Shown here piece by piece: positions 1 through 32,000 of a stretch of DNA of 32,000 bases. A program made the position numbers and the translations under genes. The number at the start of each line of letters is the position of its first letter. Within the stretch, counting starts at the first letter, position 1. Source of the DNA: Candidatus Karelsulcia muelleri. GTDB taxonomy: Bacteria; Bacteroidota; Bacteroidia; Flavobacteriales; Blattabacteriaceae. The stretch spans positions 124,327 through 156,326 of the forward strand of contig NZ_CP094965.1 in assembly GCF_022985615.1 (NCBI RefSeq). Direction: 5' to 3'. The notes beneath the pieces are model-generated. The model was not told where the DNA came from. It saw only the letters and a list, made by a program, of their open reading frames with translations, and did no database searches.

Positions 1-461
1 ACTATTGAAACTGGTTCTGTAAAAGGGATTTTAGAAATATATAATGCAGAAGAAGCTGCGAGACAGGCTAAAACATCTGGTAATATCTTTTTATCATAAG
101 ATAAAAGAGAAATCATAATTTGAATATCTTTATAGAAGTTTTTGGGAAAAATGGGTCGTAATACACGGTCTATAAGTCTCATCGTCATTATTTCTTCTTC
201 TGTACATCTGCCTTCTCTTTTAAGATATCTCCCCGGAATTTTACCTATCGCTGAATATTTTTCTCTATAATCTATTGTAAGTGGTAGAAAATTTACACCT
301 TCTTTTTCTTCTTTTGAAATTACTACTGTAGCCAATAAAATTGTATTTCCCATTCTGATTATAACTGAACCATTAGCTTGCTTGGCTAATTGGCCAGTTT
401 CAATATTTATATATTTTCCATCATTTAAAAATATTTTTTCTTTTATTAATTTTGTAATCAT
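1..461 (-). CDS. pnp: polynucleotide phosphorylase (PNPase), N-terminal part; 3' end runs off the window
   Basis: Own minus-strand translation from the ATG (complement of 459-461): MITKLIKEKIFLNDGKYINIETGQLAKQANGSVIIRMGNTILLATVV...NFLPLTIDYREKYSAIGKIPGRYLKREGRCTEEEIMTMRLIDRVLRPIFP. This matches the conserved first RNase PH domain of PNPase. It is missing from the ORF track because no stop lies inside the window. Confidence 0.9.
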   Translation of the reverse strand, partial: MITKLIKEKIFLNDGKYINIETGQLAKQANGSVIIRMGNTILLATVVISKEEKEGVNFLPLTIDYREKYSAIGKIPGRYLKREGRCTEEEIMTMRLIDRVLRPIFPKNFYKDIQIMISLLSYDKKILPDVLACLAASSALYISKIPFTEPVSI

Positions 462-463
462 AT

Positions 464-640
464 TTATTTTTTTTTTAGCAATGATTTAATCATTTGTTTT
501 TTTTTAGTAACTTGTTTAATTAAAATTCTATAACTATTATAATCGTGTTGATTTTGTTTTAAATGATTAGTAATTCTTTTTATCTTTTTATTTAAGTATA
601 ATAGTTGTGCTAGATTGGAACCAGTATCTAATTTTTTCAT
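464..640 (-). CDS. rpsO: 30S ribosomal protein S15 (shortened, 58 aa)
   Basis: Own translation: MKKLDTGSNLAQLLYLNKKIKRITNHLKQNQHDYNSYRILIKQVTKKKQMIKSLLKKK*. It aligns with the central core of S15 (DTGS..Q.A.L...I..L..H...H..D.HS.RGL...V..R..LL.YL). The canonical rpsO-pnp order is kept, and the stop lies 2 nt before the pnp ATG. It is below the ORF-track length cut-off. Confidence 0.8.
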   Translation of the reverse strand: MKKLDTGSNLAQLLYLNKKIKRITNHLKQNQHDYNSYRILIKQVTKKKQMIKSLLKKK

Positions 641-941: not shown

Positions 942-945
942 TATG

Positions 946-2369: not shown

Positions 2370-2839
2370 TGAGAAAATTAAAAAAAAAAAAAATAATATA
2401 CGAACCAGATCCAAAATTTAAAGAACCATTAGTTACAAGATTTGTGAATCATTTAATGAAACATGGTAAAAAAAAATTAGCCTATAGAATATTTTATAAT
2501 TTTATAGATGAATTAGAAAAGATCAATAATAATAAAAAAGGAATAAAAATTTGGAAAAAAGCTTTAAAAAATGTGACTCCACAAGTCTATATAAGAAGTA
2601 AACGGATAGGAGGGACAAAAATAAATATACCAATTATTCTACCAAAAACCTTACAATTAACTAAAGCTATGAAATTACTTATTAATAGTTCGAAAGAAAG
2701 AAAAGAAAAAGCAATGTATAAGAAATTAGCAGGAGAAACCTTAGCAGCTTACAAAAAAGAAGGAAGAGCAATAAAAAAAAAAGAGAATATGCATAAAATA
2801 GCTGAATCCAATAAAGCCTTTTCACATATAAAATTTTAA
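2369..2839 (+). CDS. rpsG: 30S ribosomal protein S7
   Basis: 156 aa. DPKFKEPLVTRFVNHLMKHGKK and the C-terminal ENMHKIAESNKAFSH(I)KF match S7. The ATGA overlap with rpsL and the str-operon order support the call. Confidence 0.93.
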   Translation: MRKLKKKKIIYEPDPKFKEPLVTRFVNHLMKHGKKKLAYRIFYNFIDELEKINNNKKGIKIWKKALKNVTPQVYIRSKRIGGTKINIPIILPKTLQLTKAMKLLINSSKERKEKAMYKKLAGETLAAYKKEGRAIKKKENMHKIAESNKAFSHIKF

Positions 2840-2869
2840 AAAACATCACATATAAAATTTTAAAAAACA
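2822..2869. repeat. 24-bp perfect tandem duplication (x2) spanning the rpsG stop codon
   Basis: TCACATATAAAATTTTAAAAAACA occurs at 2822-2845 and again at 2846-2869, 24/24 identical. Each copy carries ...SHIKF-TAA. Confidence 0.97.
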
Positions 2870-2876: not shown

Positions 2877-4961
2877 ATGGGAACAAAGTTAAAATATACA
2901 AGAAATATTGGCTTTGCTGCTCATATAGATGCTGGTAAAACCACTACGACAGAAAGAATATTATTCTATACTGGAATAAATCACAAACTTGGAGAAGTTC
3001 ATGAAGGGACTGCTACTATGGATTGGATGGCACAAGAACAAGAGAGAGGAATAACAATAACTTCTGCTGCTACACGTTGTGAATGGAAAAATAATGATAA
3101 GATATATAAAATTAACATTATAGATACACCAGGTCATGTAGATTTTACGGTGGAAGTTGAAAGATCGTTAAGAATATTAGATGGCTTGGTGATTTTATTT
3201 AGTGCAGTGGATGGGGTGGAACCCCAATCAGAAAATATTTGGTTACAAGCTGACAAATATAAAGTACCCAGAATTTGTTTTATTAATAAAATGGATCGTC
3301 AAGGTGCAAGTTTTTTTGAAGTTTGTGATCAAATAGAAAAAGTACTAGATACTAATTGTTTGATCTTACAAATTCCTATAGGGAATGAAGAAAATTTTAA
3401 AGGAATTGTAGATATAATTTCTAATAAAGCCTTTATATGGAATGAAATTGACTTTGGCAGAACCTTAAAAGAAATCCCAATTCCTTCGAATTTAATAAAA
3501 TTGACTGAAGAATATCGTAAAAAAATGATAGAAAGGTTAGCTGAGGGTGATAGTAAACTTTTTGATAAATACTTTGATTCAAAAAACCAAATCACTGAAG
3601 AGGAGATAATAACTACTATAAAAAAACAGACCTTAAAACTGGAAATAACTCCTGTTATTTGTGGTTCAGCTTTCAAAAATAAAGGAATACAATATATTTT
3701 GGATGCAATATGCAGATTTCTGCCCTCACCGATAGAATGTAAAAAGATATACGGTTATAGTGTGAAGGAAAAAAAAAAAAAAAAGATTATTCCAAAGATT
3801 AATAACCCTTTTTCAGCTTTAGCATTTAAAATTTCTTCTGATCCTTTTGTTGGAAAATTGACTTTTTTTAGAGTATATTCAGGAAAAATAAAATCTGGAT
3901 CTTATGTTTTAAACAGTAGAACAAATAAGAAAGAAAGGATTTCAAGAATTTATCAAATGCATGCTAATAAACAAAATCCTATTAATTTAATTAAAACTGG
4001 TGATATTGGTGCAGCAGTAGGGATTAAAAATATTAAAACTGGAGATACTCTATGTGATATTAATAATCCAATTTTTTTAGAAAAGATATTTTTCCCAGAT
4101 ACAGTAATTGGCTTAGCTATTGAACCTAAATACAAATCAGATATAGATAAAATGAGTATGGCACTATCAAAATTAATAGTAGAAGATCCCTCATTACAAA
4201 TTCGTAATGAGAAAACCACTGGACAAACAATAATTTCAGGAATGGGAGAGTTACATTTAGAGATTATTCTTGATAGAATGAAAAGAGAATTTAACGTTGA
4301 AGTTAATAAAGGAAAGCCCCAAGTAGAATATAAAGAAATATTAACTAAAAAAGTTCTTCACAGAGAAATATATAAAAAACAAACTGGTGGAAAAGGTAAA
4401 TATGCTGATATTCTATTTCAGATTGAACCAATAAAAAAAGATTTCCAAGGCTTAAAATTTGTAAACAAAGTAAAAGGAGGAAATATTCCGACAGAATTTA
4501 TTCCTTCAATAGAAAAGGGATTTAAAGAATCTTTAAGAAATGGGCCTTTAGCAGGATACGAAATAGAAAAAGCTAAAATTATTTTACTTGATGGATCATA
4601 TCATACAGTAGATTCCGATCAACTATCTTTTGAGTTAGTTAGTAAAATAGGGTTTAAAAATGCAGCTAAAAAAGCTAATCCATATCTTTTAGAACCTTTT
4701 ATGAAGTTGGAAGTTTTTACTCCTCAAAAATATATGGGTATTATTGTTGGTGATCTTAATCGTAGAAGAGGTGTAATTCAAGGAATGGAAGATAAGCGAA
4801 AAAATGTAAAAATTATTAAAGCAGTAGTTCCACTCTCTGAAATGTTTGGATATGTCACTTCTTTAAGGACTTTATCTTCGGGAAGAGCCACCTCAATAAT
4901 GATGTTTTCTCATTATCAGAAAGCCCCTGAAAGGATTTGTAATAAAATAATATATAAATAA
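2877..4961 (+). CDS. fusA: translation elongation factor G
   Basis: 694 aa. GTPase motifs AHIDAGKTTTTERILFYTG, DTPGHVDF and NKMDR are present, with EF-G domains IV/V (GGKGKYADI, HTVDSDQLSFE). Confidence 0.97.
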   Translation: MGTKLKYTRNIGFAAHIDAGKTTTTERILFYTGINHKLGEVHEGTATMDWMAQEQERGITITSAATRCEWKNNDKIYKINIIDTPGHVDFTVEVERSLRILDGLVILFSAVDGVEPQSENIWLQADKYKVPRICFINKMDRQGASFFEVCDQIEKVLDTNCLILQIPIGNEENFKGIVDIISNKAFIWNEIDFGRTLKEIPIPSNLIKLTEEYRKKMIERLAEGDSKLFDKYFDSKNQITEEEIITTIKKQTLKLEITPVICGSAFKNKGIQYILDAICRFLPSPIECKKIYGYSVKEKKKKKIIPKINNPFSALAFKISSDPFVGKLTFFRVYSGKIKSGSYVLNSRTNKKERISRIYQMHANKQNPINLIKTGDIGAAVGIKNIKTGDTLCDINNPIFLEKIFFPDTVIGLAIEPKYKSDIDKMSMALSKLIVEDPSLQIRNEKTTGQTIISGMGELHLEIILDRMKREFNVEVNKGKPQVEYKEILTKKVLHREIYKKQTGGKGKYADILFQIEPIKKDFQGLKFVNKVKGGNIPTEFIPSIEKGFKESLRNGPLAGYEIEKAKIILLDGSYHTVDSDQLSFELVSKIGFKNAAKKANPYLLEPFMKLEVFTPQKYMGIIVGDLNRRRGVIQGMEDKRKNVKIIKAVVPLSEMFGYVTSLRTLSSGRATSIMMFSHYQKAPERICNKIIYK

Positions 4962-4963: not shown

Positions 4964-5257
4964 ATGTTAAATTATAAAATTAAAATAAAAGCATTTGACG
5001 GCTATATATTAAACCTATCAGTAATAAAAATTATTAATTACATTTCAAAGCAGAATATAAAAGTTATTGGACCAATTACCTTACCAACTAAAAAAAAAAT
5101 ATATACCATTTTAAGATCTCCTCATGTACATAAAAAATCAAGAGAACAATTTAAATTGTTCATCCATAAAAGATTTTTAGTGGTATATAATGTAAAAAAG
5201 ATTTTAAAACCAATTGATCTCCCTAGTGGAGTAAAATTAGAAATAAAAAAATGTTAG
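4964..5257 (+). CDS. rpsJ: 30S ribosomal protein S10
   Basis: 97 aa. IKIKAFD..., [31 protein letters not shown] is S10-like, and this is the first gene of the S10 block. Confidence 0.93.
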
Positions 5258-5898
5258 GACTAATTGGAAAGAAGATAGGTATGACTAGTTATTTTAATAA
5301 ATTAGGTTACTGTATACCCTGTACAGTAATAAAAGCTGGACCTTGTACAGTATTACAAAAAAAAAGTATAAAAAAAGATGGCTATTATTCTATTCAACTA
5401 GGGTTTGAAGATAAAAAAAAGAAAAAAACTAATAAACCTTTATTAGGCCATTTTAAGAAATTTAACTCCTCTCCGAAAAAAAGAATATTTGAATTTGCAG
5501 GTAATTTTTTAAATTCTCCAGGAGATATAATAAAAGTAGATTTATTTAAAGAAAATGATAAAGTAGACATAGTAGGAAAATCGAAAGGTAAAGGATTTCA
5601 AGGGGTTGTAAAGCGTCACGGTTTTTCAGGAGTGGGTGAAAAAACACATGGTCAACATAATCGTTCTCGTGCACCTGGTTCAATTGGTGCAGGTTCCAAT
5701 CCATCAAGAGTGTTCAAAGGGACCCGAATGGCTGGAAGAATGGGTGGAAAAAGAAGAACGATAAAAAATTTAAAGATTTTAAAAATAGATTTTAAAAGAA
5801 ATTTATTAATAGTAAAAGGTTCAGTACCCGGTCACCAAAATTCTTATTTATTAATAAAAATAAAATTGGATAAAAATGATAATAGAAATTTTAAATAA
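5251..5898 (+). CDS. rplC: 50S ribosomal protein L3
   Basis: 215 aa. [10 protein letters not shown]..., [31 protein letters not shown] and RMAGRMG match L3. Confidence 0.94.
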
Positions 5899-6523
5899 AA
5901 AGGGTTTAAAAACTGGTAGAAAAATAAAATTTAATTATAATTTTCTTTACAATAATATTAATATAAAAACTAAAAAACATCTAATTTATTTAGAAATTAA
6001 AAGATTTTTAGCTGCACAAAGACAAGGTAGTCATCAAACTAAAGGAAGGAGTCAGATTCAAGGAAGTAATAAAAAAATTCAGAAACAAAAAGGAAGTGGT
6101 AATGCTAGAAAAGGTGATAGAAAAAATCCTTTATTTGTTGGTGGGGGGAGAATTTTCGGTCCAGTTAAAAGAAAGTATAATTTAAAATTAAATAAAAAGA
6201 TAAAAAAGCTGGCTATAAAAATTTTATTTTATGAAAAATTTATAAATAAAAAAATTAAAATTATTGCATCTTTTCCATTAAAAGAAATTTCAACAAAGAA
6301 AATAATAAAGCTGTTAAAAGTATTAAATATATTTAAAAAAAAAATATTATTTATTACTAATAAAAGAGAGAAAAAGCTCTATTTTTCTTCTAGAAACTTG
6401 AAAAATGTAAAAATTATAAATATAATAAATGGAATAAACAGTTATGATATAGCAAAAGCTTATTACTTGATAATTAAAGAAAATTCAATAAAATATTTAG
6501 AAAATATGTTAAATAAGAGCTAA
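5876..6523 (+). CDS. rplD: 50S ribosomal protein L4
   Basis: 215 aa. [11 protein letters not shown]...[12 protein letters not shown]...[12 protein letters not shown] is the L4 core, and the position in the operon fits. Confidence 0.9.
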
Positions 6524-6528
6524 AAAAG

Positions 6529-6846
6529 GTGAGTGAAAAGAGAATAAAATTCCTCTTTTATAAAGAGTATATAAATAAAAACTTAAGTAAAAAAATAAAA
6601 CCAATTATAACTGAAAAAGCTATATTTACCAATATATCAAATAATTATTATACTTTTATTTTTCCTATTTATTTTAATAAAAAGGAAATTTCAAAATATC
6701 TACAGAGAGTTTATAGAATTAAGATAACCAAGTTACATACTAATATTTATTATAAAAAAAAGAGTAATAAAAGAATATTGAAAAAAACTTTTTCAGGAAA
6801 AAACATAAAATTTAAAAAGGCTTTTTTTAAAGTAAAAGATTTTTAA
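6529..6846 (+). CDS. rplW: 50S ribosomal protein L23 (GTG start)
   Basis: 105 aa. IKPIITEKAIF...NYYTFIF...NKKEISKYLQRVYRIKI...FKKAFFKV follows the L23 pattern, and the gene sits between rplD and rplB. Confidence 0.85.
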   Translation: MSEKRIKFLFYKEYINKNLSKKIKPIITEKAIFTNISNNYYTFIFPIYFNKKEISKYLQRVYRIKITKLHTNIYYKKKSNKRILKKTFSGKNIKFKKAFFKVKDF

Positions 6847-6847
6847 A

Positions 6848-7675
6848 ATGCCAATTAAGAGAAAAAACCCCATTACGCCAAGTCAAAGGTTTCAGATATT
6901 AAATAAATTTTCTGAAATAACTAAAACAAAACCAGAGAAATCTCTGGTTTTTGGGCTTTCAAAAAAAGGAGGAAGAAATAATACTGGAAAAATTACGATG
7001 AAATATATCGGAGGAGGACATAAAAAAAAATATAGAATAATAGATTTTAAAAGAAAAAAAAGGGGAATTCCTGCTATAGTTAAATCTATAGAATATGACC
7101 CAAATAGATCTTGTTTTATTTCACTTTTACATTATATAGATGGTGAAAAAAAGTATATTTTATCTATTAAAGGACTTACAGTTGGACAAAAAATATTATC
7201 TGATGAAATTACAGAACCAAAAATAGGAAATGCAATGTTATTAAAAAATATCCCTTTAGGAAGTATTATTTGCTGTATTGAATTGTACCCTAATTGTGGT
7301 GCTGCATTAGCTCGTAGTGCTGGAACATCGGTACAATTAATTGCGAAAAAAGAAAAATATTGTACTTTGAAATTACCATCAGGTGAAACCCGAATGGTAT
7401 TATCTAATTGTCTGGCAACTATTGGTTCAGTATCAAATCAAGATCATAAATTAGTAATTTCAGGAAAAGCTGGAAGAAACCGTAGGTTAGGAAGAAGACC
7501 TCGAACAAGAGGAGTAGCTATGAATCCAGTTGATCACCCAATGGGTGGTGGTGAAGGAAAAGCCTCAGGAGGCCATCCAAGAAATCGAAATGGAATTCCT
7601 TCACATGGTTTTAAAACACGTAAGAAAAACAAAAAATCCAATAAATATATTATAATAAAAAAAAAAAATAAGTAG
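6848..7675 (+). CDS. rplB: 50S ribosomal protein L2
   Basis: 275 aa. [44 protein letters not shown] and [16 protein letters not shown] match L2. Confidence 0.96.
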
Positions 7676-7683
7676 TAATAATT

Positions 7684-7974
7684 ATGCCACGTTCATTGAA
7701 AAAAGGGCCATTTATTAATTACAAATTGATTAAAAAAATAGTAATTAATAATAGATTAAAAACAAAGAAAATAATAAAAACTTGGTCAAGAGCTTCAACA
7801 ATAACTCCAGAATTTATAGGAAATTCAATTGCAGTTCATAATGGGAAAAAATTCATGACAATTTATATTTCAGAAAATATGGTAGGACATAAATTAGGAG
7901 AATTTTCTCCTACTCGAAATTTTCGTAGTCATTCTGGAGCTAAAAAAATAAAGCCTACTCGAAATAAAAAGTAA
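7684..7974 (+). CDS. rpsS: 30S ribosomal protein S19
   Basis: 96 aa. [11 protein letters not shown]..., [25 protein letters not shown] and [16 protein letters not shown] match S19. Confidence 0.95.
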
Positions 7975-8309
7975 TGTTTAAAAACAAAAAATTAGATTTC
8001 TATTATAAATCTAATAATATTAATTATTCAAAAATTAAGCTGATAAAATTAATTAATATTATTAAGTCGAAAAATATTGAAGATATAATGAATTTATTGA
8101 TAAATTTTAAAACAAAAGGAGCAATACTTTTAAAAGAGATAATTTTGAATGCTTATAAGAATTTTAGGAGACAATCCCCCAAAAAAAATGTATATATAAA
8201 AAACATTATAATTAACAAAAGCCGAATTTTTAAAAAAATTAGGCCAACTTCACAGGGTAGAGCTAAGAAAATAAAAAAACAATTTTTTAAAATGATTTTG
8301 ATTTTTTAA
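7974..8309 (+). CDS. rplV: 50S ribosomal protein L22 (divergent)
   Basis: 111 aa. The position between rpsS and rpsC fits, and KKIRPTSQGRAKKIKK corresponds to the L22 R(A)MGRA..I.KR motif. The C-terminus and stop lie inside a 19-bp tandem duplication. Confidence 0.85.
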   Translation: MFKNKKLDFYYKSNNINYSKIKLIKLINIIKSKNIEDIMNLLINFKTKGAILLKEIILNAYKNFRRQSPKKNVYIKNIIINKSRIFKKIRPTSQGRAKKIKKQFFKMILIF

Positions 8310-8320
8310 AATGATTTTGA
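8283..8320. repeat. 19-bp perfect tandem duplication (x2) spanning the rplV stop codon
   Basis: TTTTTTAAAATGATTTTGA occurs at 8283-8301 and 8302-8320, 19/19 identical. Confidence 0.97.
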
Positions 8321-8345
8321 TACTTTACCAGGAAAAAAAGAAAAA

Positions 8346-9044
8346 ATGGGACAAAAGGTAAATCCGATAGCCAATCGGCTAGGAATCTCAACTTGCTGGA
8401 AATCAATATGGTATAGTGAAAAGTTTAATCAGCTGAAAGAAGATTTAGAAATACGAAAATATCTAAATATTAGATTAGCAAAATCTTATTTATCATACAT
8501 ATATATAGAACGAAAAAAGTATAAAATTTTTATTACAATTTACTCTTCAAGACCTGTAATAATTATTGGAAAAGGCGGTAATGAAATAGAAAAATTAAAA
8601 AAAGAAATTAATAAAATTACTAAGAAAAAAATAAATATTAATATACTAGAAGTAAAGATCCCAGAAATAGAAGCTCTCTTGATTGCAAGAAACCTTGCAA
8701 ATCAAATTGAAAATCGTCTACCATATAAAAAAGCTATAAAATTCGCAATAAATTCTGCATTACGTAAAAAGGTAGAAGGGATCAAAATTAAAATTTCTGG
8801 TCGTTTAAATGGAACTGAAATGGCACGTACGGAATTTTATAAAGAAGGAAGAATTCCTTTTTCGACTTTTAGAGCTAACATAGATTATTCAACTTATGAA
8901 GCTCATACTACTTATGGGAAAATAGGGATAAAAGTATGGCTTATGAAAGGAGTAGTATATAATAAAAAAGAATTATATCTCTATCTCTTAAGACCTAAAA
9001 AGAAAAAAAAAACAAGTACTTATGCTAAAGCCAAAAATAAATAA
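8346..9044 (+). CDS. rpsC: 30S ribosomal protein S3
   Basis: 232 aa. [18 protein letters not shown], the KH domain ([17 protein letters not shown]) and [22 protein letters not shown] match S3. Confidence 0.95.
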
Positions 9045-9429
9045 ATTTGATAAACTCCATAAAGGCCGAATAAAAGGATATGCTAAAAAAGGTACAAAAC
9101 TTCACTTTGGGATATTTGGACTAAAAACTTTAGATACAGCTTGGCTTTCAGATAGACAAATAGAAGCAGCACGTATAGCAGCTACACGACATATGAAAAG
9201 ACAAGGAAAATTATGGATCAATATTTTTCCTAATAAGCCTATTACAAAAAAACCTCAAGAAGTTAGAATGGGTAAAGGAAAAGGGGCTATAGACCATTGG
9301 GTGGCTGTGGTAAAACCTGGGAGAATATTAATAGAAATCGATGGAGTAAATTTGGAAATAGGAAAAGAAGCTTTAAGATTAGCTGCTAATAAATTGCCAA
9401 TAAGAACAAAATTAATTTTAAAAGGATGA
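9022..9429 (+). CDS. rplP: 50S ribosomal protein L16
   Basis: 135 aa. [67 protein letters not shown] matches L16. Confidence 0.95.
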
Positions 9430-9665
9430 GGAAAAAAAAAAGAATTGGTATAATATTAAGTGATAAAATGAATAAAACAAGAGTAGTAGGTGAAGTAGTA
9501 AAAAGAAAACATAAGATTTATAAAAAGAATATTTATTATACCAGAAAATATTTTGTTCACGATGAAAAAAATAAATCCAATAAAGGGAATACAGTAGAAA
9601 TAATTTTTACACGACCATTAAGTAAGAAGAAACGTTGGAATTTATTTAAAATAATAAAATGTTAA
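9426..9665 (+). CDS. rpsQ: 30S ribosomal protein S17
   Basis: 79 aa. [15 protein letters not shown].....H.IYKK.I....KY.VHDE.N....G..V.I...RPLSK.KRW is the S17 pattern. It overlaps the rplP stop through ATGA. Confidence 0.88.
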
Positions 9666-9680
9666 TGTTAAGAATCAAAT

Positions 9681-10049
9681 ATGTTACAACAAGAATCATT
9701 TCTTAATGTTGCTGATAACACGGGTGCAAAAAAAGTTTTATTAATCCGTGTATTAGGAGGTACTAAAAAAAACTATGCTTCTCTTGGCGATACTATTATA
9801 GTAACAGTTAAAAATTCAATTGCTGGATCTACCATCAAAAAAGGACAAGTCACAAAAGCAGTAGTAGTTCGAACAAAATATAAAGTTAAACGCAAGGATG
9901 GATCATATATAAGTTTCGATGATAATGCCTGTGTTTTATTATCAAAAAGTGGCGAAATTAGAGGTACTAGAATCTTTGGGCCAGTGGCAAGAGAATTAAG
10001 AGAAAAAGAATATATGAAAATAATTTCATTAGCTGTAGAAGTATTATAA
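9681..10049 (+). CDS. rplN: 50S ribosomal protein L14
   Basis: 122 aa. [25 protein letters not shown]..., FDDNACVLL and [22 protein letters not shown] match L14. Confidence 0.96.
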
Positions 10050-10056
10050 TATTAAA

Positions 10057-10389
10057 ATGAAAATTAAAACTAAAGATACTATATTAATTAATAGTGGGAA
10101 TTCTAAAGGCAAGAAAGGGCAAGTTATAAAGATTATAAAAAAGAAAAAGAGAGCTTTAGTAAAACTTTTCAATCAGCAATTAATTGAAATTGATTTATCG
10201 AATATACTTTTAATATATAGACCCTCTTATAATTATAAGAGTTTTGACAAAGTCCAAAAACTTTTAATTAAAGTGAGAAAAATAAATAAAAAATTAAATT
10301 CTTTCTTTTCGATAGAAGAATTAAAGAATTTATTAAAGATTAGAGATTTAGAAAATATTAAACTTAGAAAGAATGAATTATTTACCTAG
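10057..10389 (+). CDS. rplX: 50S ribosomal protein L24 (KOW N-terminus, divergent C-terminal half)
   Basis: 110 aa. The N-terminus MKIKTKDTILINSGNSKGKKGQVIKI has the KOW motif, and the gene lies between rplN and rplE. The C-terminal ~55 aa show no L24 similarity that I can recognise. Confidence 0.7.
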   Translation: MKIKTKDTILINSGNSKGKKGQVIKIIKKKKRALVKLFNQQLIEIDLSNILLIYRPSYNYKSFDKVQKLLIKVRKINKKLNSFFSIEELKNLLKIRDLENIKLRKNELFT

Positions 10390-10918: not shown

Positions 10919-10922
10919 AATT

Positions 10923-21088: not shown

Positions 21089-21095
21089 TAAAAGA

Positions 21096-23416: not shown

Positions 23417-23929
23417 TTTAGTAAGTAATCTTTTTTTGTTTTTAGGAATCTTTTTTAAGAACTCTATTCCATTATTTTTAAATTCGAAAATAATGTTTTT
23501 AATACCATTTGTAAGAACGAGATATTGGCTTTTGAATCTCAAATAATATTTCATTATTTGATCAAAAGATTTAGATGAAATCTTTACTTCAGGAGATTTA
23601 CATTCAACCATTATAAATGGTCTTTTTTTTTTAAGAACTAGAATATCTATCCGATTTTTAATATTATAAAAAGTTGAATGGAATTCGACATATATTTCAT
23701 GAACATTATAGCCTCTATTTTTTATTAGATAATAAATTATCTTTTGTCTCACTAATTCTTCTTTAGTTAAAAGATAATATTTTTTTCTAATTAAGCAAAA
23801 AACGTACATTTTACCGTTAAATGTTTTTATCTTATTTTTTATATTACATTTATTCAATAGCTTGTAATTTCTTTTTTTTATATGATTATGATTAATCTTA
23901 CAAATATTAAAATTAAAGAAATTAAACAA
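23408..23929 (-). CDS. HsdR_N-like / PD-(D/E)xK nuclease-fold domain protein (conserved hypothetical of Bacteroidota)
   Basis: 173 aa. LIRKKYYLLTKEELVRQ..I.YLI...GY, then RIDILV....RPFIMVECK (a D...ExK nuclease-fold motif), F.Q...Y......QYLVLTNG. From memory, this matches the small 'type I restriction enzyme HsdR N-terminal domain' family that sits divergent from holA in flavobacteria. The start codon is uncertain. Confidence 0.6.
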   Translation of the reverse strand: MFNFFNFNICKINHNHIKKRNYKLLNKCNIKNKIKTFNGKMYVFCLIRKKYYLLTKEELVRQKIIYYLIKNRGYNVHEIYVEFHSTFYNIKNRIDILVLKKKRPFIMVECKSPEVKISSKSFDQIMKYYLRFKSQYLVLTNGIKNIIFEFKNNGIEFLKKIPKNKKRLLTKLN

Positions 23930-24736
23930 ATTTCTCTTTTTATAGGTGAAGAAGAATATCTTATAAAAGAATATATAGAAGAGATAGAGAATCTTTTAAA
24001 GAACAGGATTCTAAATATATTATAGAAGTAAAAGAAGAAGATAGAATAACCAATATTTTACACTCTTACTCTATTTAAAGAATATAAGTTAATTATTCTT
24101 AAAAATTCGTAAGATCTAAATCTAAGCTTAGATAACTTAGAAAAATTACTAAAAAAGACCTCGAAAAGAAATATTTTCATTTTTTGTATTAATTTCGTAA
24201 TTCACTCACGAAATTTATAATTTTATAATTTTATTAAAAAAAACACAAATAACAACATAGAAATTATAAATAATAAAAAATTAACTTTTGGTGAAATTTT
24301 GTATTTAGTAAAAAGAAAAATAAAAAAAATAGGCTTAAAGATAAATGAAATAACAGTAAAAAAAATGATACAATCTGTTGATTCCAATTTATTTATGCTT
24401 GAAAATGAGTTAAAAAAAATAAGATTTAATAATATTAATAATATAGCTGACAATTATAATTATAAACTTCTTCATAATGAATTTAAAATAATTTTAAAGA
24501 TGCTTGAAGTCCACCCCCTAACTTTAATCTTAAATAAGATATATAAACTATACTTAGAAAAAGTTATGACTTATAATAATAATGAAGAAAAATTTAATAA
24601 AATAGCTAATTTAGTTTTTCTGCTAAAAGAAGCAGAGAAAAAAAATAAGAGCTATTTTTTAAAAAAGGAAGAAATAATGAAAGAACTAATTTATAAAATA
24701 TGTCAAATAGAGAAAGAGAAATCTTTGATTGTATAA
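23882..24736 (+). pseudogene. holA: DNA polymerase III delta subunit, single frame interrupted by five in-frame stops in its first ~113 codons; the C-terminal 172 codons are open
   Basis: One frame reads MIMINLTNIKIKEIKQISLFIGEEEYLIKEYIEEIENLLKNRILNIL*K*KKKIE*PIFYTLTLFKEYKLIILKNS*DLNLSLDNLEKLLKKTSKRNIFIFCINFVIHSRNL*FYNFIKK...LTFGEILYLVKRKIKKIGLKINEITVKKMIQSVDSNLFMLENELKKI.... It follows the HolA pattern (Y...GEE.yLi, slF.e.kLiil.n, l..l....s....+if, i......G..i...a...l......l..l.nEl.Kl). Stops are at 24023 (TAG) and at 24029, 24047, 24110 and 24218 (all TAA). No frameshift is needed. Confidence 0.55.
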
Positions 24737-25641
24737 TTATAGGAGGTGGTCCAGCAGGATATACGGCAGCCATTTATTTAGCTCGTGCAGAAATAAAACA
24801 CCTTCTTTTTACAGGCTTTAAACCAGGTGGACAATTGATATCAACTAATAAAATAGAAAATTATCCTGGTTTTCCTGATGGGATATCTGGTTACAAATTA
24901 ATGGAATCTTTTAAAGCCCAAAGCGAAAACTTCGGGACTAAGGTAAAAGATAATAGTGTAGTAAAAATTAATTTTAATATAATAAAAAATTGGCATGAAA
25001 TTATCTTAGATAATTCTTTAAAAATAAAAACCAAAACACTAATTATAGCGACTGGAGCTTCTCCTAGATATTTAAATATTGAGAATGAAAAAAAATTAAT
25101 TGGAAAGGGTATTTATACATGTGCAAATTGTGATGGCTTTTTTTTTAAAGGGAAAAAAGTAGCAGTAATTGGTGGAGGGGATAAAGCAGCAGAAGAATCT
25201 ATTTATTTAGCTAATATTTGTAAAAAAGTATATCTAATAATAAGAGATAAAAAAATGAAAGCTTCAAAAATTATGCAAAAAAAAGTTTTAAACATTAAAA
25301 ATGTTGAAATATTTTATTATCATAAAGTTATAAAAATAATTGGAGAAAAAAAAATAAAAGCGATTTTTTGTAAAAACAGAAAAAATAATAATAATTACTT
25401 ATTTAAGGTGGCAGCTCTTTTTTTAGCTATTGGGCAAATTCCAAATAGTCTTATTTGTAAACCAAATCTAAAATTAGATAAATCTGGATATATAATTACA
25501 AAATATACAATTACTAATATTCCTGGAATATTTGCAGCAGGAGATGTGCAAGACACAAGATATCGACAAGCAATCACCTCAGCTGGATCTGGTTGTATGT
25601 CTGCAATAGAGGTAGAAAAATACCTTATTAAAGTTCAATAA
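24700..25641 (+). CDS. trxB: thioredoxin-disulfide reductase
   Basis: 313 aa. It has the FAD motif IIIGGGPAGYTAAIYLAR, the redox-active CANCDG (CxxC), the NADPH motif VIGGGD.A.EE and the C-terminal GIFAAGDVQD..YRQAITSAGSGCM.A. Confidence 0.94.
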   Translation: MSNREREIFDCIIIGGGPAGYTAAIYLARAEIKHLLFTGFKPGGQLISTNKIENYPGFPDGISGYKLMESFKAQSENFGTKVKDNSVVKINFNIIKNWHEIILDNSLKIKTKTLIIATGASPRYLNIENEKKLIGKGIYTCANCDGFFFKGKKVAVIGGGDKAAEESIYLANICKKVYLIIRDKKMKASKIMQKKVLNIKNVEIFYYHKVIKIIGEKKIKAIFCKNRKNNNNYLFKVAALFLAIGQIPNSLICKPNLKLDKSGYIITKYTITNIPGIFAAGDVQDTRYRQAITSAGSGCMSAIEVEKYLIKVQ

Positions 25642-25664
25642 CCAACCTTATTAAAGTTCAATAA
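25622..25664. repeat. 23-bp-period tandem duplication spanning the trxB stop codon
   Basis: ACCTTATTAAAGTTCAATAA occurs at 25622-25641 (ending with the trxB TAA) and again at 25645-25664, 20/20 identical. Confidence 0.95.
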
Positions 25665-25669
25665 AGAAT

Positions 25670-25722
25670 ATAAAAGAAAAAATAAAAGAAAAAATAAATA
25701 TTAGATACTTTATTAGATACTT
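25670..25722. repeat. two adjacent 12-bp tandem duplications
   Basis: ATAAAAGAAAAA x2 at 25670-25693; TATTAGATACTT x2 at 25699-25722. Confidence 0.9.
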
Positions 25723-25750
25723 AGAAGTTTTCTTTTCTTATCATGGATTA

Positions 25751-25849
25751 AGTACAAACAAACAAACATAACAAAGTACAAATAAACAAACAAACATAAC
25801 ATAACATAACATAAGTAAGTAAGTACAAACAAGTAAGTAAAGTACAAAC
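25751..25849. repeat. compound microsatellite block
   Basis: AGTACAAAC-type words recur 4 times. (ACAA)n runs are present, with CATAA x4 at 25795-25814 and GTAA x2.75 at 25815-25825. Confidence 0.85.
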
Positions 25850-25921
25850 ATTATTTACATTTTTAATTCTTTTATTATTTACATTTTTAATTCTTTTATT
25901 ATTTACATTTTTAATTCTTTT
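25850..25921. repeat. 24-bp perfect tandem repeat x3
   Basis: ATTATTTACATTTTTAATTCTTTT occurs at 25850-25873, 25874-25897 and 25898-25921, all identical. Confidence 0.96.
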
Positions 25922-25934
25922 TTCTTTTACAAAT

Positions 25935-26145
25935 AGCAGTTAGCTGCTAATCAGCAGTTAGCTGCTTATCAGCAGTTAGCAGCAGTTAGTTAGCAGCAGT
26001 TAGCTGCTAATCAGCAGTTAGCAGCAGTTAGTTAGCAGCAGTTAGCTGCTAATCAGCAGTTAGTTAGCAATCGTTAGCTAATGCTAATCAATCAATCAGC
26101 AAGCAGTTTGCTAATCAATCAATCAGTTAGTTAGCTAATGCTAAG
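25935..26145. repeat. GC-enriched modular palindromic repeat array (higher-order 42-bp unit)
   Basis: The modules are A=AGCAGTTAGCTGCTAATC (18), B=AGCAGTTAGC (10) and C=AGCAGTTAGTTAGC (14). They occur in the order A-A'-B-C-A-B-C-A-C (25935-26068). A degenerate tail (26069-26145) has GCTAATCAATCAATCAG x2 and TTAGCTAATGCTAA x2. The modules are built from the inverted words TTAGC/GCTAA and AGCAG/CTGCT. Confidence 0.93.
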
Positions 26146-26262
26146 TTTTAATAAGTATTTCTTAAAAAAGATATTTATTATTTTATTATTTATTACTTTT
26201 ATATTAAAAAAAGTTTTTTAGCGATTATTAATAAATTGTTGTAAACTAGGATCTTTATTAGG

Positions 26263-26322
26263 ACTTACTTACTTGTGTTTACAGTAACTTGTTTTTACAG
26301 TAACTTACTTGTGTTTACAGTA
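26263..26322. repeat. 16-bp tandem repeat x3 with ACTT micro-expansions
   Basis: ACTTGTGTTTACAGTA (26271-26286), ACTTGTTTTTACAGTA (26287-26302) and ACTTGTGTTTACAGTA (26307-26322), flanked by extra ACTT units. Confidence 0.9.
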
Positions 26323-26582
26323 AATTGCCTTCATTTTATTCCAAAGTATTTTTTTTAAAAGCTATTATTTTAAATAAATTCTTAAAAAGATCTCTTTTTT
26401 AAATTATTATTTTTTAATTATTAATTATTAGAAAGTTTATTTCTATTTCTTATATAAGAAGAGAAAATATATAGAAATAATTCTGATAATAAGATAAAAT
26501 ATCAATAAACAATTGTAAATAACATTTTTTGTTTTCTTTATAATATTTTTTTCTTTTTCTTTATCTTTTCGTTTCATTTATC

Positions 26583-27617: not shown

Positions 27618-27806
27618 TTATTTAATGCTTTATTTATATTATATAGAATATAATAATAGAATATATAATATAATATAATATAATTAATTATCTAATTAAT
27701 TAGATATTATATATAATATTAAGAGAATATAATATAATATTATCTTATCTAAGATTCTAGAATATAGAATAAAATAATCTAATTACTTTGATAGATACTA
27801 TAATGC

Positions 27807-28267
27807 ATAGCATTATTGACAATAATAAATAAATAATAGCATTTATTATTTATTATTATGAGGATTGATTATTTATGATATGATAATAAATAATAAATAA
27901 TAGCATTTATTATTTATTAGGATGAGGATTGATTATATGATAATAACTAATAAATAATAGCATTTATTATTTATTAGGATGAGGATGAGAATAAATAATA
28001 GCATTTATTACAAGAATAAATAGCATTTATTATTTATTAGGATGATATGATAATAAATAATAGCATTTATTACAAGAAATAATAAATAGCATTTATTTAT
28101 TATAATTAATTATGAATTTAATATTATTATTATGATTAATTATATTATTATTATTATTATTAATTATTAATTATGATATTTATGATATGATTTACAATAC
28201 AATACAATAATAAATAAATAGCATTAATTATGATATTTAGGATTTACAATAATAAATAGCATTTATT
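27807..28267. repeat. array of ~10 copies of an AATAAATA(AT)AGCATTTATT-type unit running from the ilvC upstream region into the 3' end of ilvN
   Basis: The core ATAGCATT starts at about 27807, 27836, 27900, 27957, 27998, 28020, 28060, 28086, 28218 and 28256. The first three long units (~57-64 bp) also share TTAGGATGAGGATTGATTAT. The last copy encodes the INAIYY C-terminus of ilvN. Confidence 0.9.
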
Positions 28268-28479: not shown

Positions 28480-30159
28480 TTAAAAACATATTTTTGATAC
28501 TGATTTTTCAGTCGGTATCATTGGTAGGGTATTATACTCTTTTTCGACTAAAATTTCTATTAAAAAAACCTCTTTAGATTTTAACATTTTCTTTATATTT
28601 TCTTTTAATTTTTCTTTAACAAATACTTTTTTACTTTTTATGTTATATGCTTTTGAAAGGTTAGTAAAATTTGGATTATATATTTTAGTATTAGAAAATC
28701 TTCTATTAAAGAATAAATCTTGCCATTGTTTTACCATTCCTAAAAAATTATTATTAAGAATTATAATTTTGATAGGTATTTCATATTGCATTATTGTCCC
28801 AAGTTCTTGAATAGTCATTTGAAACCCCCCATCTCCTACTATACATATTACTTGACGTCTTTTAGCACCTATCTTGGCACCAATAGCAGCTGGTAAAGCA
28901 AATCCCATTGTACCTAAACCTCCTGATGTTATTTGACTTTTCAGAGTAGTAAAATTAAAATATCTTGAGGCAGACATTTGATGTTGACCTACATCAGTTA
29001 CTAATATACAATTAGTTTTTTTATATAAATTTATATAATTTATTACTTCTGGCATAGTAATCCCTATTTTGTTTTTTATAAATTCTTTTTCTTTTACATA
29101 TTTCCTTTCTACTTTCTTTAATAAGTTAAAGGTTTTTACCCATTTTTCTGTGCTATTGGTTTTAAAGTTTTTAATTAAATAATTTAAATTATGTTTTAAA
29201 TTTCCTAGTAAATAAATAGTAGGTTTTAGTCTTTTGTTAATTTCGTAATTATCTATATCTATATGTATGATTAGAGTTTTTGGGGAAATTGTTTTTATAT
29301 TTCCTATAAGTCTATCATCAAAACGTAAACCTATTGCAATTATTAAATCAGATTTTAAAATTAAAATATTATTTTGGTAATTTCCATGCATTCCTAACAT
29401 ACCATAGTTCAAATTATGGTTGGTCTTTAAAATTCCCATACCTAATAAAGTACTAGCTACTGGTATGTTGGTCTTTTCTGCAAATTGTTTTAATTGATTT
29501 TCTGCATTTGCTAGTTTTACTCCTTGTCCAATTATTATTATTGGTTTACGGGCTTTTTTAATTGTTTTAATTACCTTTTGTAATTCTTTTTTATTAATTT
29601 TATTTTGTGTTTTTAGATTTGTTTTGGTTTTGGGTGGAAATATTATTACTTGGTTTAGTTGTTGAACCTGGGTATTTTTTGTTATATCTATTAATATAGG
29701 ACCTGGTCTACCATTTGTGGCTAGGTTTAAACCTTTAGATATTACTTCGAATATTTGATCTGGTTTAGTTATTTGAAAATTCCATTTTGTCACTGGTATT
29801 GATATGTCTATTATATCTATTTCTTGAAAGGCATCTGTTCCTAATAAATTTGAAGAAACTTGACCAGTTATACATAATAATGGAGTACTATCAATTAGAG
29901 CATCGGCTAAACCAGTAATTAGATTACTGGATCCGGGACCTGATGTAGATAAACAAATACCTGGTTTTCCAGTTACTCTAGCATACCCTTGGGCTGCATG
30001 AATTGATCCTTGTTCATGACGAGTTAATATGTGTTTTATTTGTTTTTTGTAAGTGAACAAGGAATCATATATTGGCATTACTGCACCACCTGGATAACCA
30101 AAAATAAATTTTACCTTATTATAAATTAAAGTTTTAACTATAATTTCAGCCCCTGTCAT
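28480..30159 (-). CDS. ilvB: acetolactate synthase, large (catalytic) subunit
   Basis: 559 aa. GAEIIVKTL......FGYPGGAVMPIYD, TRHEQGSIHAAQGYARVTGKPG.CL.TSGPG..NL.TG.ADA..DS.PL, and the ThDP motif GDGGFQM..QEL.T......P.KI..LNN..LGMV.QWQ match ALS. Confidence 0.95.
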   Translation of the reverse strand: MTGAEIIVKTLIYNKVKFIFGYPGGAVMPIYDSLFTYKKQIKHILTRHEQGSIHAAQGYARVTGKPGICLSTSGPGSSNLITGLADALIDSTPLLCITGQVSSNLLGTDAFQEIDIIDISIPVTKWNFQITKPDQIFEVISKGLNLATNGRPGPILIDITKNTQVQQLNQVIIFPPKTKTNLKTQNKINKKELQKVIKTIKKARKPIIIIGQGVKLANAENQLKQFAEKTNIPVASTLLGMGILKTNHNLNYGMLGMHGNYQNNILILKSDLIIAIGLRFDDRLIGNIKTISPKTLIIHIDIDNYEINKRLKPTIYLLGNLKHNLNYLIKNFKTNSTEKWVKTFNLLKKVERKYVKEKEFIKNKIGITMPEVINYINLYKKTNCILVTDVGQHQMSASRYFNFTTLKSQITSGGLGTMGFALPAAIGAKIGAKRRQVICIVGDGGFQMTIQELGTIMQYEIPIKIIILNNNFLGMVKQWQDLFFNRRFSNTKIYNPNFTNLSKAYNIKSKKVFVKEKLKENIKKMLKSKEVFLIEILVEKEYNTLPMIPTEKSVSKICF

Positions 30160-31999
30160 TTATATTCTCTGTAATACACCCTTCAGAAGCTGAGTCATTT
30201 ATATTCTCTGTAATACACCCTTCAGAAGCTGAGTCATTTATATTCTCTGTAATACACCCTTCAGAAGCTGAGTCATTTATATTCTCTGTAATACACCCTT
30301 CAGAAGCTGAGTCATTTATATTCTCTGTAATACACCCTTCAGAAGCTGAAGATACTAATTTGGAATATTTAGATAAATAGCCTGAATTTGAATTATTCTT
30401 TGGTCTTTTATATTCTTTTTTTCTATTTAGTAAATCTTTTTTGGAGATTTTTAATGTTATTCGATTTTTTATAGCATCTATCTTTATTATATCTTTTTCT
30501 TGTATTAGTGCAATTACTCCACCAATTTGTGCTTCGGGTGTTATATGACCAACTACAAAACCATGAGTTCCACCTGAGAATCTGCCATCGGTTATTAAAG
30601 CAACTTTATTTCCTAATCCGGCTCCCATAATATATGAAGTAGGTTTTAACATTTCAGGCATTCCTGGACTTCCTTTGGGTCCAACATATCTGATTACTAT
30701 AACATCTCCAGATTTAATCTTATTATTTAATATTGCCTTATTGGCTTCTATTTCGGAATCAAATACTTTAGCTCTTCCAGAAAAGCAATGTCCTTCTTTT
30801 CCTGAAATTTTAGCTACGGCTCCTTTAGGTGCAATATTACCGTATAATATACGAATATGTCCTTTATTTTGTATTGGTTTGTATAATGTTGAAATTACTT
30901 TTTGATTCGAAAAAGATATATTGGGTATACCTTCTAAATTTTCTTTTATTTTTTTTCCTGTCACAGTTAAGCACTCACCATTTAGTAAGCCTTCATTTAG
31001 CAAGTATTTCATTATAATAGGAGTCCCTCCAATTGTTTCTATATCTTCCATTAAATACTTACCACTCGGTTTAAGATTCCCTATTATTGGAACATTTTCA
31101 GTAAGCTCTTTTATATTATCAATATTAAATTTGATTTTGGCTGTTTTACATATTGCTAATATATGTAATACTAAGTTAGTTGAACCGCCTAAAGCAATAG
31201 CAACTGTAATTGCATTTTTTATGGAATTTTTAGTAATTATTTTTTTAGTATTTATATTTTTTTTTAATAATTCTTTCATATAATAACCTATTTTCTTACA
31301 TTCATATTTTTTATTTATATTATTAGCTAAACAAGAAGAAGAAAAAGGTAATGTCATTCCTAAGGCTTCTAAGCTTGTGGCAACTGTGTTAGCTGTATAC
31401 ATTCCACCACAAGCTCCAGGACCTGGACAAGCATTTTTTATTATGTTTTGGTATTCTGAATTTGAGATTTGGCCTATATTTTTTTGGCCTAATGCCTCAA
31501 ATGCTGAGACAATATTTAATTTTTTTCCTTGGTATTTTCCTGATTCTATGCTACCACCATAAATTATTATTGCTGGTCTTTCTGTTCTTATTATACCCAT
31601 CAACACTCCTGGTATATTCTTATCGCAGCCTGGTATTCCAATTATACCATCATAATGTTGAGCTTTTACTACACTTTCTATACTATCTGCTATTATCTCT
31701 CTAGATGGCAAAGAATATTTCATACCTTCTGTACCCATTGTCATTCCATCACTTACTCCAATTGTATTAAACTGAAATCCAATCATATTATTTTTATTTA
31801 TTGATTTTTTTGCTTCTTTAGATAAAAGATTAAGATGCATATTACATGGGTTCCCCTCATACCAATTGCTTACTACTCCTATTTGTGGTTTATATAAATC
31901 TTTTGCTTTGATTCCTGTGGCATATAACATAGCCCTGTAAGCTGGTAATTCATCACTCTTGATTAAATGAGAACTATAGGTAGTATTTATTATAGCCAC
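30146..31999 (-). CDS. ilvD: dihydroxy-acid dehydratase with a 5x tandem 13-aa C-terminal repeat; the start lies at or beyond the window edge
   Basis: 617-aa ORF. GNPCNMHL, VSDGMTMGTEGMKYSLPSREIIADSIE, GIPGCDKN.PG, CPGPGACGGMYTANT, LITDGRFSGGTHGFVVGHI.PEA and SSASEGCIT are IlvD/Edd signatures. The GTG at 31997-31999 may or may not be the true start. The C-terminus carries SASEGCITENIND x5. Confidence 0.95.
   Translation of the reverse strand: MAIINTTYSSHLIKSDELPAYRAMLYATGIKAKDLYKPQIGVVSNWYEGNPCNMHLNLLSKEAKKSINKNNMIGFQFNTIGVSDGMTMGTEGMKYSLPSREIIADSIESVVKAQHYDGIIGIPGCDKNIPGVLMGIIRTERPAIIIYGGSIESGKYQGKKLNIVSAFEALGQKNIGQISNSEYQNIIKNACPGPGACGGMYTANTVATSLEALGMTLPFSSSCLANNINKKYECKKIGYYMKELLKKNINTKKIITKNSIKNAITVAIALGGSTNLVLHILAICKTAKIKFNIDNIKELTENVPIIGNLKPSGKYLMEDIETIGGTPIIMKYLLNEGLLNGECLTVTGKKIKENLEGIPNISFSNQKVISTLYKPIQNKGHIRILYGNIAPKGAVAKISGKEGHCFSGRAKVFDSEIEANKAILNNKIKSGDVIVIRYVGPKGSPGMPEMLKPTSYIMGAGLGNKVALITDGRFSGGTHGFVVGHITPEAQIGGVIALIQEKDIIKIDAIKNRITLKISKKDLLNRKKEYKRPKNNSNSGYLSKYSKLVSSASEGCITENINDSASEGCITENINDSASEGCITENINDSASEGCITENINDSASEGCITENINDRG
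30156..30350. repeat. 39-bp tandem repeat x5 across the ilvD 3' end / ilvB start overlap
   Basis: TCATTTATATTCTCTGTAATACACCCTTCAGAAGCTGAG occurs at 30156, 30195, 30234, 30273 and 30312. Four copies are identical, and the fifth differs only at its last base (30350). Confidence 0.97.
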
Positions 32000-32000
32000 A

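Follow-up and report, generated by a model that had tools for sequence, protein, structure and literature searches.

Evidence for frequent tandem duplication, probably filtered by selection, in the Sulcia symbionts of Pyrops planthoppers

We analysed the last 32 kb of the 156,326-bp genome of Candidatus Karelsulcia (Sulcia) muelleri from a Pyrops planthopper (lantern bug), a stretch of contig NZ_CP094965.1 that we refer to in full as the window, and found it dense in short tandem duplications. The duplications are real, derived, polymorphic between strains, specific to one clade and biased towards insertion. We consider a slippage-type duplication process filtered by selection, operating in the Sulcia of the Pyrops clade, to be their probable origin (roughly 80%). 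Sulcia is a textbook case of a static genome, and the shrinking of bacterial genomes is commonly attributed to a built-in deletion bias; strains 0.2–1% apart show the opposite trend here, with tandem insertions rivalling substitutions in number.

Tandem repeats exceed chance in one Sulcia clade

The window was compared with parts of the genomes of two sister strains, CP094963.1 (156,700 bp) and CP094964.1 (155,888 bp), which are 0.2–1% diverged from it with complete synteny across it. The Sulcia genomes of three Pyrops species were described by Deng et al. 2023 (PMC10333215), who assembled them from Nanopore reads with Illumina polishing and a read-mapping check; tandem repeats go unmentioned in that paper. 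Further relatives were CM132443, CM132419, DICMUL (Dictyopharidae), OPOL2 (Cixiidae), CARI (from a spittlebug), sharpshooter-type and leafhopper Sulcia, together with Illumina-only, short-read assemblies of a ~98%-identical relative (Logan contigs, SRR318646xx; hereafter the Logan relative).

We searched the window with Tandem Repeats Finder and an exact-repeat scan, counting perfect loci with a period of 4–70 and at least two copies after merging overlaps, and used sequences generated from first-, third- and fifth-order Markov models of the window as the null. There were 37 loci of at least 16 bp against 6.0–7.4 under the null, 26 of at least 18 bp against 1.9–2.7, 13 of at least 24 bp against ~0.1 and 10 of at least 30 bp against 0; loci of 16–17 bp alone were only modestly (~5-fold) above expectation. 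All listed loci are in exact head-to-tail register with no spacer between copies. An initial annotation, made from the letters of this DNA, had counted about 20 independent loci, which is approximately right, and both tools recovered them in place. Its statement that most copies are 100% identical suits the many perfect loci but not the older arrays, which Tandem Repeats Finder reports as diverged (a 64-bp unit in 3.7 copies at 83% identity and the mutL 15-bp unit in five copies at 91%). The 8-bp 'repeats' in rpsO, rpsG, rpmJ and ilvB are at chance level: two copies of TCTTTTTA in rpsO are kept in all relatives compared and reflect no duplication event. A further 8-bp repeat in the holA pseudogene, at 24214, goes back to a G-to-T substitution rather than to a duplication.

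Repeat density, expressed as perfect loci of at least 24 bp per 10 kb in samples of 10–40 kb per genome (not whole replicons), separates the Sulcia lineages. It was 4.1 in the window, 4.75 in CP094964 (~99.7% identity to the window), 3.2–3.8 in CP094963 (~99%), 4.4 in CM132443 (98.6%) and 1.9–3.1 in contigs of the Logan relative, compared with 0.85 in CM132419 (94%), 0 in DICMUL (93%), 0.95 in OPOL2 (86%), 0 in CARI, 0.9 in sharpshooter-type Sulcia and 1.85 in leafhopper Sulcia. The clade at 98% identity or above therefore has 3–5 times the density of equally AT-rich Sulcia at 94%, 93% or 86% identity or from a spittlebug; GC content is 25% in the window and similar across the Sulcia samples compared (0.21–0.26). 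We conclude that the duplication burst is restricted to the clade whose members share at least 98% identity with the window; an equal density in related genomes, which would have refuted the claim of a burst, was not seen. A density several-fold higher in the Pyrops clade appears to be unreported so far. The repeats do not form a dispersed or mobile family of the repetitive extragenic palindrome or miniature inverted-repeat transposable element type, none of which was found in the window: families of at least 22 bp are all local, and distant 'copies' of repeat units are AT-rich matches at 75–85% identity.

Duplications are derived, recent and insertion-biased

Between the window and CP094964 there are 84 substitutions in 32 kb, together with 26 indel blocks that all measure at least 3 bp. 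The comparison with CP094963 gives 201 substitutions in 26 kb and 24 indel blocks, of which a single one is 1 bp long. Repeat states nest along the substitution tree ((window, CP094964), CP094963). Duplications at 2822 (24 bp), 17533 (44 bp) and 17788 (15 bp) are found in the window only, those at 8282 (19 bp), 8976 (6 bp), 15171 (5 bp), 16083 (15 bp) and 21095 (16 bp) are common to the window and CP094964 only, and that at 16043 (9 bp) is present in all three Pyrops strains and missing from the Logan relative. Using CM132443 or the Logan relative as the outgroup for indel polarity, we identified 10 tandem insertions, no deletions and 90 substitutions among polarizable changes in window positions 5210–20850 (15.6 kb; binomial P = 0.002 for the indels). 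Outgroups place the single copy as the ancestral state at orthologous loci, and sister strains at 0.2–1% divergence lack the extra copies or vary in their number.

Close relatives also differ by whole-unit changes in copy number, as in (TAAGTA) with three versus six copies, a 24-bp array with one versus three and the ilvD/ilvB array with one versus five. CP094963 has private events of its own: its rplW carries a 15-bp duplication, and an array of a 16-bp unit adds 64 bp between pdhA and pdhC. CM132443.1 (L020) carries microsatellites at two gene junctions, 40 copies of (CTATTA) between tsaD and rpsL (9727–9965) and 19 copies of (AATGTT) between rpsQ and rplN (17624–17739); the window has no array at either place. 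The view that duplication or slippage is recent, ongoing and filtered by selection is thus borne out by comparison with relatives.

Repeats probably survive where selection permits

Repeats cluster at gene ends, as the initial annotation had proposed: 22 of the 37 loci fall between genes or across a gene end, compared with 4.7 ± 2.0 expected, and none of 5,000 permutations reached 22. With two large spacers excluded (described below), 10 of 25 loci are at gene ends or intergenic against 2.0 expected, and among loci that are demonstrably derived the fraction is 6 of 13 against 1.3 (P = 0.0002). The further idea that repeats are nucleated at gene boundaries is not established by this clustering. 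The enrichment is real, but survivorship accounts for it and repeats are densest in unconstrained DNA.

The rule that every repeat period within coding sequence is divisible by 3 holds for derived duplications in intact genes, which measure 6, 9, 9, 9, 15, 15, 15n and 39/30 bp; it fails for the chance 8-bp repeats and for a 19-bp duplication in rplV. Indel lengths in the spacers are not biased towards multiples of 3, and the in-frame duplications sit in unconstrained protein segments. Repeat positions and lengths therefore fit a selection filter. The frame filter is not absolute, since a truncation of RplV has been tolerated. We also asked whether the repeats include a phase-variable contingency locus; none emerged in the window, where derived in-gene units are multiples of 3 and the 19-bp rplV duplication is a fixed 3′-end truncation.

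These patterns suggest the following sequence of events. A slippage-type process in the Pyrops clade would make head-to-tail duplications of 5–60 bp, frequent relative to point substitutions, and the resulting arrays would then lengthen and shorten. Selection would clear most duplications within genes. The survivors would be those in non-coding DNA; those spanning a gene terminus, where a complete gene copy is kept and the spare partial copy becomes spacer; those that are in frame within unconstrained protein segments (the mutL linker, the rpoA C terminus and the IlvD tail); and rare tolerated truncations such as that of RplV. Gene-end enrichment would arise because a duplication that spans a stop codon, a start codon or an RNA end leaves one intact copy of the gene. 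The new spacer would be unconstrained and duplicated again, and boundaries would therefore grow into nested, repeat-rich spacers, the net outcome being insertion rather than deletion.

Alternatively, duplication might itself be targeted to gene ends, through polymerase stalling or template switching at sites of transcription initiation and termination or through replication–transcription conflicts, in which case the clustering would be mutational. Consistent with targeting, the boundary enrichment persists without the large spacers, the ilvD/ilvB junction hosts arrays of differing units in two strains, and other strains have boundary arrays of their own (pdhA/pdhC in CP094963 and the two junctions in CM132443). 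However, repeat density peaks in the two large unconstrained spacers, distant from termini, and 7 of the 13 derived loci outside the spacers are intragenic: intact protein genes hold five, the holA pseudogene one and a variable rnpB loop one, those in protein genes and in the holA pseudogene all having periods divisible by 3. A pure survivorship model predicts both the spacer density and the in-gene pattern, and we regard targeting as rather unlikely.

Duplications in and around individual genes

At the rpsG stop (2822–2869, plus strand; stop codon 2837–2839), a 24-bp unit comprising the last five rpsG codons, the stop codon and 6 nucleotides is present in two perfect copies. RpsG is intact and the fusA start has moved 24 bp downstream; one copy is present in each of CP094963, CP094964, CM132443 and the Logan relatives. 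The 3′ end of rplV (8282–8321, plus strand) carries 2.1 copies of a 19-bp unit within the ancestral frame. This duplication frameshifts RplV, shortening it from 122 to 111 amino acids with the tail becoming ...MILIF, and the overlap with rpsC is lost. CP094964 has the same duplication, and CP094963, CM132443 and the Logan relatives have one copy. Two in-frame copies of a 6-bp unit in rpsC (8976–8987, plus strand) are also found in CP094964, with one copy in four other genomes, and three in-frame copies of a 9-bp unit in rplF (11780–11806, plus strand) occur throughout the Pyrops clade, with two copies in DICMUL. Beginning at the rpsD stop codon (15171–15184, plus strand) are 2.8 copies of (TAATT), an array shorter by one unit in CP094963 and the Logan relative.

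The degenerate C-terminal part of rpoA contains derived in-frame duplications of 9, 9 and 15 bp, among them a 9-bp unit in two copies at 16043–16060 and a 15-bp unit in two copies at 16083–16113 (plus strand). In an alignment of RpoA from 16 planthopper Sulcia (window 15194–16234), the RpoA C-terminal domain (PF03118) was undetected in most members, lengths ranged from 324 to 402 amino acids, and the C-terminal part showed lineage-specific in-frame repeats: SKSKSK, a poly-Y run, LGLGLG, KTELKTELK and two copies of KTWAELVKV. A scan of genome contigs with an RpoA alignment found only two Sulcia loci. In mutL (17904–19580), the linker 3′ of the N-terminal domain carries a variable-number tandem repeat (VNTR) of 15 bp (18433–18513, minus strand), with five-residue units FL[NK]KI or DLKKI. 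The array measures 81 bp in the window against 66 bp in CP094963 and 96 bp in CP094964; it is shorter in the Logan relative (36 bp) and in DICMUL (24 bp), and MutL length across strains is 543–563 amino acids.

RNA genes carry duplications too. A composite duplication lies at the rsmH stop and the 5′ end of rnpB (17460–17629, plus strand): the first 52 bp of rnpB, including the rsmH stop, are present at both 17460–17511 and 17578–17629, and the junction later gained six copies of (TAAGTA) and a 26-bp duplication in two copies. Sister strains are 44 bp shorter here, and the duplicated rnpB 5′ segment is missing from the Logan relative, DICMUL and OPOL2. Within rnpB, a 15-bp unit in two copies (17788–17817, plus strand) lies within an insertion in the variable P15–P17 region of the Rfam model and is single copy in both sister strains. 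At the 3′ end of tRNA-Arg (21095–21127, minus strand), two copies of a 16-bp unit cover the last ~9 nucleotides of the tRNA and its trailer, ahead of the lysS start; CP094964 has the same duplication, and CP094963 and OPOL2 have one copy. We also observed an older boundary repeat at the rpsO stop and pnp start (432–505, minus strand), with 2.4 copies of a 32-bp unit at 79% identity.

The ilvD/ilvB array

Between the 3′ end of ilvD and the start of ilvB (30155–30349, minus strand) is a perfect array of five 39-bp units, each containing the conserved IlvD C terminus and the ilvB start codon. The array extends IlvD by 4 × 13 amino acids (SASEGCITENIND), and annotated IlvD lengths are altered (617 against 574 amino acids). 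Four 12-codon mini open reading frames (ORFs; MTQLLKGVLQRI) precede ilvB, and every unit has a TAA-ATG in the ilvB frame. In CP094964, one 39-bp unit is followed by four 30-bp units without GAAGGGTGT; the unit is single in CP094963 and in every other Sulcia IlvD sequence. The differing arrays of the window and CP094964, at 0.2% divergence, require either a deletion within one unit with later contraction and re-expansion or independent expansions, and turnover is therefore fast whichever route was taken. The presence of five units in both strains may be coincidental.

Some arrays could instead be kept for a function, such as an upstream-ORF ladder at ilvD/ilvB or an adaptive extension of a protein linker. 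The mini-ORFs are rich in Leu, Val and Ile and could tune ilvB translation, the stop–start in the ilvB frame recurs in each unit, and both strains have five units despite differing unit lengths (39 versus 39 + 4 × 30 bp). Yet one copy suffices in CP094963 and all other Sulcia, units are unrelated between loci, copy number varies between strains 0.2% apart, and no regulatory machinery is known in such genomes. We give little credence to a retained function, and less still to the particular proposal of a leader-peptide-like ladder of upstream ORFs for ilvB.

Spacers built of repeats

The two large intergenic spacers of the window are composed of nested arrays. The first covers the trxB stop and a 941-bp trxB–ilvC spacer (25630–26582) and contains a 23-bp array over the trxB stop, 12-bp units in 2.4 and two copies, (ACAA)n, (AACAT)n, a 24-bp unit in three copies, a 42-bp unit in 2.7 copies and 16–20-bp units in three copies. 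About 15 length differences separate the three Pyrops strains in this spacer, which is 941 bp in the window compared with 342 bp in CM132419. It marks the site of ilvA loss, and a tblastn search of the spacer for an ilvA remnant found none.

The second, a 619-bp spacer between ilvC and ilvN (27618–28236), consists of (TATAA)n, 57–64-bp units and (TTA)n. The 57–64-bp units all carry ATAGCATTTATT, which has eight exact copies in the window, seven in this spacer and one in the coding 3′ end of ilvN (28256–28267), where it encodes the conserved ...GINAIYYC tail. Because the spacer units and the ilvN 3′ end share this sequence, the spacer is built of serial copies of the ilvN terminus. The gap between ilvN and ilvC is 619 bp in the window, 640 bp in CP094964 and 109 bp in CM132419; in spittlebug, leafhopper and sharpshooter Sulcia it is less than 30 bp or a 4-bp overlap. 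The block from ilvD to lysS measures 12.4 kb in the window compared with 11.1 kb in CM132419. Five Logan contigs of 1.5–1.7 kb that carry an identical IlvC (L015–L019) stop at ~27620–27640, where the AT-rich array starts. These breaks fit repeats or length variation at that position, and contig ends at the AT-rich array are independent evidence of arrays in relatives that break short-read assembly.

Mechanism, trigger and remaining alternatives

The molecular mechanism is probably strand or polymerase slippage during replication. Indels of 1–2 bp are nearly absent, even within 1.5 kb of neutral spacer. Mismatch repair generally corrects loops of 1–4 nucleotides, and a retained mismatch repair system would remove loops of 1–2 nucleotides and leave only larger events visible. 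The same reading was proposed for leafhopper Sulcia by Waneka et al. (PMC7952229). In the window, mutL is retained and the N-terminal ATPase domain of its product is strongly conserved. The canonical C-terminal endonuclease motif of MutL was not seen in any of the planthopper Sulcia examined, and the sequence at its expected place reads IIHKDRVYKIILE, which puts the manner, and even the existence, of working mismatch repair in question.

Several points weigh against a process of slippage and selection as we have described it. The indel excess on the youngest branches could in part be slightly deleterious variants awaiting purging, and the densities rest on 10–40 kb samples per genome. The flanking microhomology of perfect duplications is 0–2 bp, which is the chance level and atypical of classical slippage; the founding step may differ from later expansion and from classical slippage between direct repeats. 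Neither of two candidate triggers stood up as the primary cause. MutL is alike in high- and low-density clades, its C-terminal region being equally divergent in the two. The second candidate, holA (DNA polymerase III delta; 23882–24736), is a pseudogene in the window and in CP094964. The window copy has a nonsense codon that CP094964 shares, a second stop found only in the window, and two deletions, of 10 bp and 11 bp, that lie 48 bp from each other. Its pseudogene status is likewise given in the genome paper (PMC10333215). Decay of holA as the primary trigger is contradicted by CP094963, which has an intact holA (290 amino acids; 288 in CM132419) and a similar repeat density, and the contrast in insertions per substitution between branches (9/55 versus 1/35) was not significant (Fisher P = 0.09). 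We found no loss of a repair gene that tracks the burst within the 32-kb window.

A further point concerns assembly. The longest perfect array, that of 195 bp at ilvD/ilvB, exceeds the 150-bp Illumina reads, so that its copy number is the one given by the assembly, and the repeats could be artefacts of assembling or polishing Nanopore-based genomes. Against such an artefact, independently assembled genomes share identical duplications in a pattern that matches the substitution tree, Illumina-only Logan assemblies show copy-number states of their own, and in-gene events preserve the reading frame. Nanopore errors, moreover, mainly affect homopolymer length rather than producing perfect 15–39-bp duplications. 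Given tree-consistent sharing and the Illumina-only assemblies, we consider an artefact of assembly very unlikely. Chance matches between low-complexity stretches at 25% GC could contribute to the 16–17-bp class, where several loci (rpsO, the holA pseudogene) are not duplications, but the probability that chance explains the excess is negligible given the 13 loci of at least 24 bp and equally AT-rich relatives near or at chance, and a chance origin was already refuted for loci of at least 18 bp.

Comparison with known systems

The closest analogue of the slippage-and-selection process is Portiera of Bemisia tabaci (PMC3673631), like Pyrops Sulcia a tiny, AT-rich, obligate insect endosymbiont. 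In Portiera, repeats have proliferated in one lineage, mainly in non-coding DNA, while the sister lineage is compact and repeat-poor; the indel spectrum lacks the usual deletion bias, intergenic DNA is enlarged, and the larger genome holds as many genes or fewer. The window shares with it lineage-specific, mainly non-coding repeats, the lack of a deletion bias and enlarged spacers. Portiera differs in that 7-bp units dominate, intergenic DNA reaches ~30% of the genome, substitution is faster and dnaQ has been lost along with other repair genes, whereas Pyrops Sulcia has units of 5–64 bp, many arrays derived from gene termini, very low strain divergence and a retained mutL.

The expectation that Sulcia genomes are repeat-poor proved too strong. 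Hypervariable microsatellites whose length varies within a host are documented in leafhopper Sulcia-MSEV (Waneka et al. 2020, PMC7952229), indels in leafhopper Sulcia are mostly microsatellite expansions (PMC7952229; PMC13345377), and a 2026 Molecular Biology and Evolution study of Karelsulcia and Nasuia reported atpB alleles with a 6-bp repeat (PMC13345377). What does seem unreported is the density seen in Pyrops. Leafhopper Sulcia resembles the window in having multi-base-pair tandem-repeat indels, rare 1-bp events, insertions at least as frequent as deletions and in-frame repeat alleles in genes. However, Sulcia-MSEV has only about four hypervariable regions per 190-kb genome compared with ~4 loci of at least 24 bp per 10 kb here, and the window, unlike leafhopper Sulcia, shows spacer growth on the kilobase scale and many two-copy duplications that arose de novo from non-repetitive sequence. 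The two-copy duplications of ordinary sequence and the gene-end-seeded spacers of the Pyrops clade likewise seem to be unreported.

Two other systems show partial likenesses. The 72/79-bp VNTR of Nasuia (PMC7952229) is also a long AT-rich array of a tiny symbiont genome, and its unit contains a nested 7-bp duplication, but it is a single locus with 7–53 copies and documented within-host variation. Contingency loci similarly have slippage-prone repeats near gene starts or ends with strain-variable copy number. They switch genes through frame or promoter spacing and are selected for this, whereas the repeats of the window keep frame, have unrelated units and show no sign of switching.

Pyrops Sulcia genomes (155.8–156.7 kb) exceed those of Dictyopharidae Sulcia (142–148 kb) by 8–14 kb with a near-equal gene set (PMC10333215). 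We raise tentatively, and at less than even odds, the idea that the indel bias of Sulcia from Pyrops (Fulgoridae) has flipped from deletion to insertion, with gene-end duplication making new intergenic DNA and re-enlarging the genome. If so, such regrowth could account for much of the 8–14 kb excess and would point to a lineage-specific change in the replication machinery, either encoded by the symbiont or supplied by the host. With at least three published complete genomes and the reads behind them, Pyrops Sulcia offers a clean natural system for studying the spectrum of large slippage events missed by mismatch repair, for testing the reversal of indel bias in an ancient symbiont and for examining genome-size differences unexplained by gene content. 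In practice, the arrays break short-read assemblies and change annotated protein lengths (IlvD, MutL and RplV).

Gene content and other features of the window

Gene calls for rpsG, rplV, rplF, rpoA, rsmH, mutL, lysS, trxB, ilvC, ilvB and ilvD were upheld; rnpB lies at 17577–17904 and tRNA-Arg at 21118–21191, and RpoA, MutL and IlvD match GenBank UOQ38226, UOQ38229 and UOQ38238 at 100%. The description of the genome as maximally compact has to be given up for this window, which contains the 941-bp (25642–26582) and 619-bp spacers and the holA pseudogene and is 7.2% non-coding.

Between rplO and rpmJ (13442–13805), secY is absent and infA is represented only by a 43-codon ORF; counterparts in sister genomes match the eIF-1a family, which suggests that infA is truncated or decaying. 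In the Logan relative (L023, L024 and L025), tsaD is present as two ORFs (160 and 155 amino acids) compared with one 334-amino-acid gene, and several ribosomal protein genes are split in contig L024; these splits could be due to gene decay or to short-read assembly error. GC and AT skew are both positive over plus-strand genes and negative from ~26 kb, a pattern that reflects purine-rich coding strands. We rejected the turn in GC skew near 26 kb as a replication landmark, as both skews track gene orientation. Long poly-A tracts in the coding sequence of AT-rich endosymbionts are prone to slippage, and fusA contains a run of 16 A at 3769–3784 that is read in frame as lysine codons.

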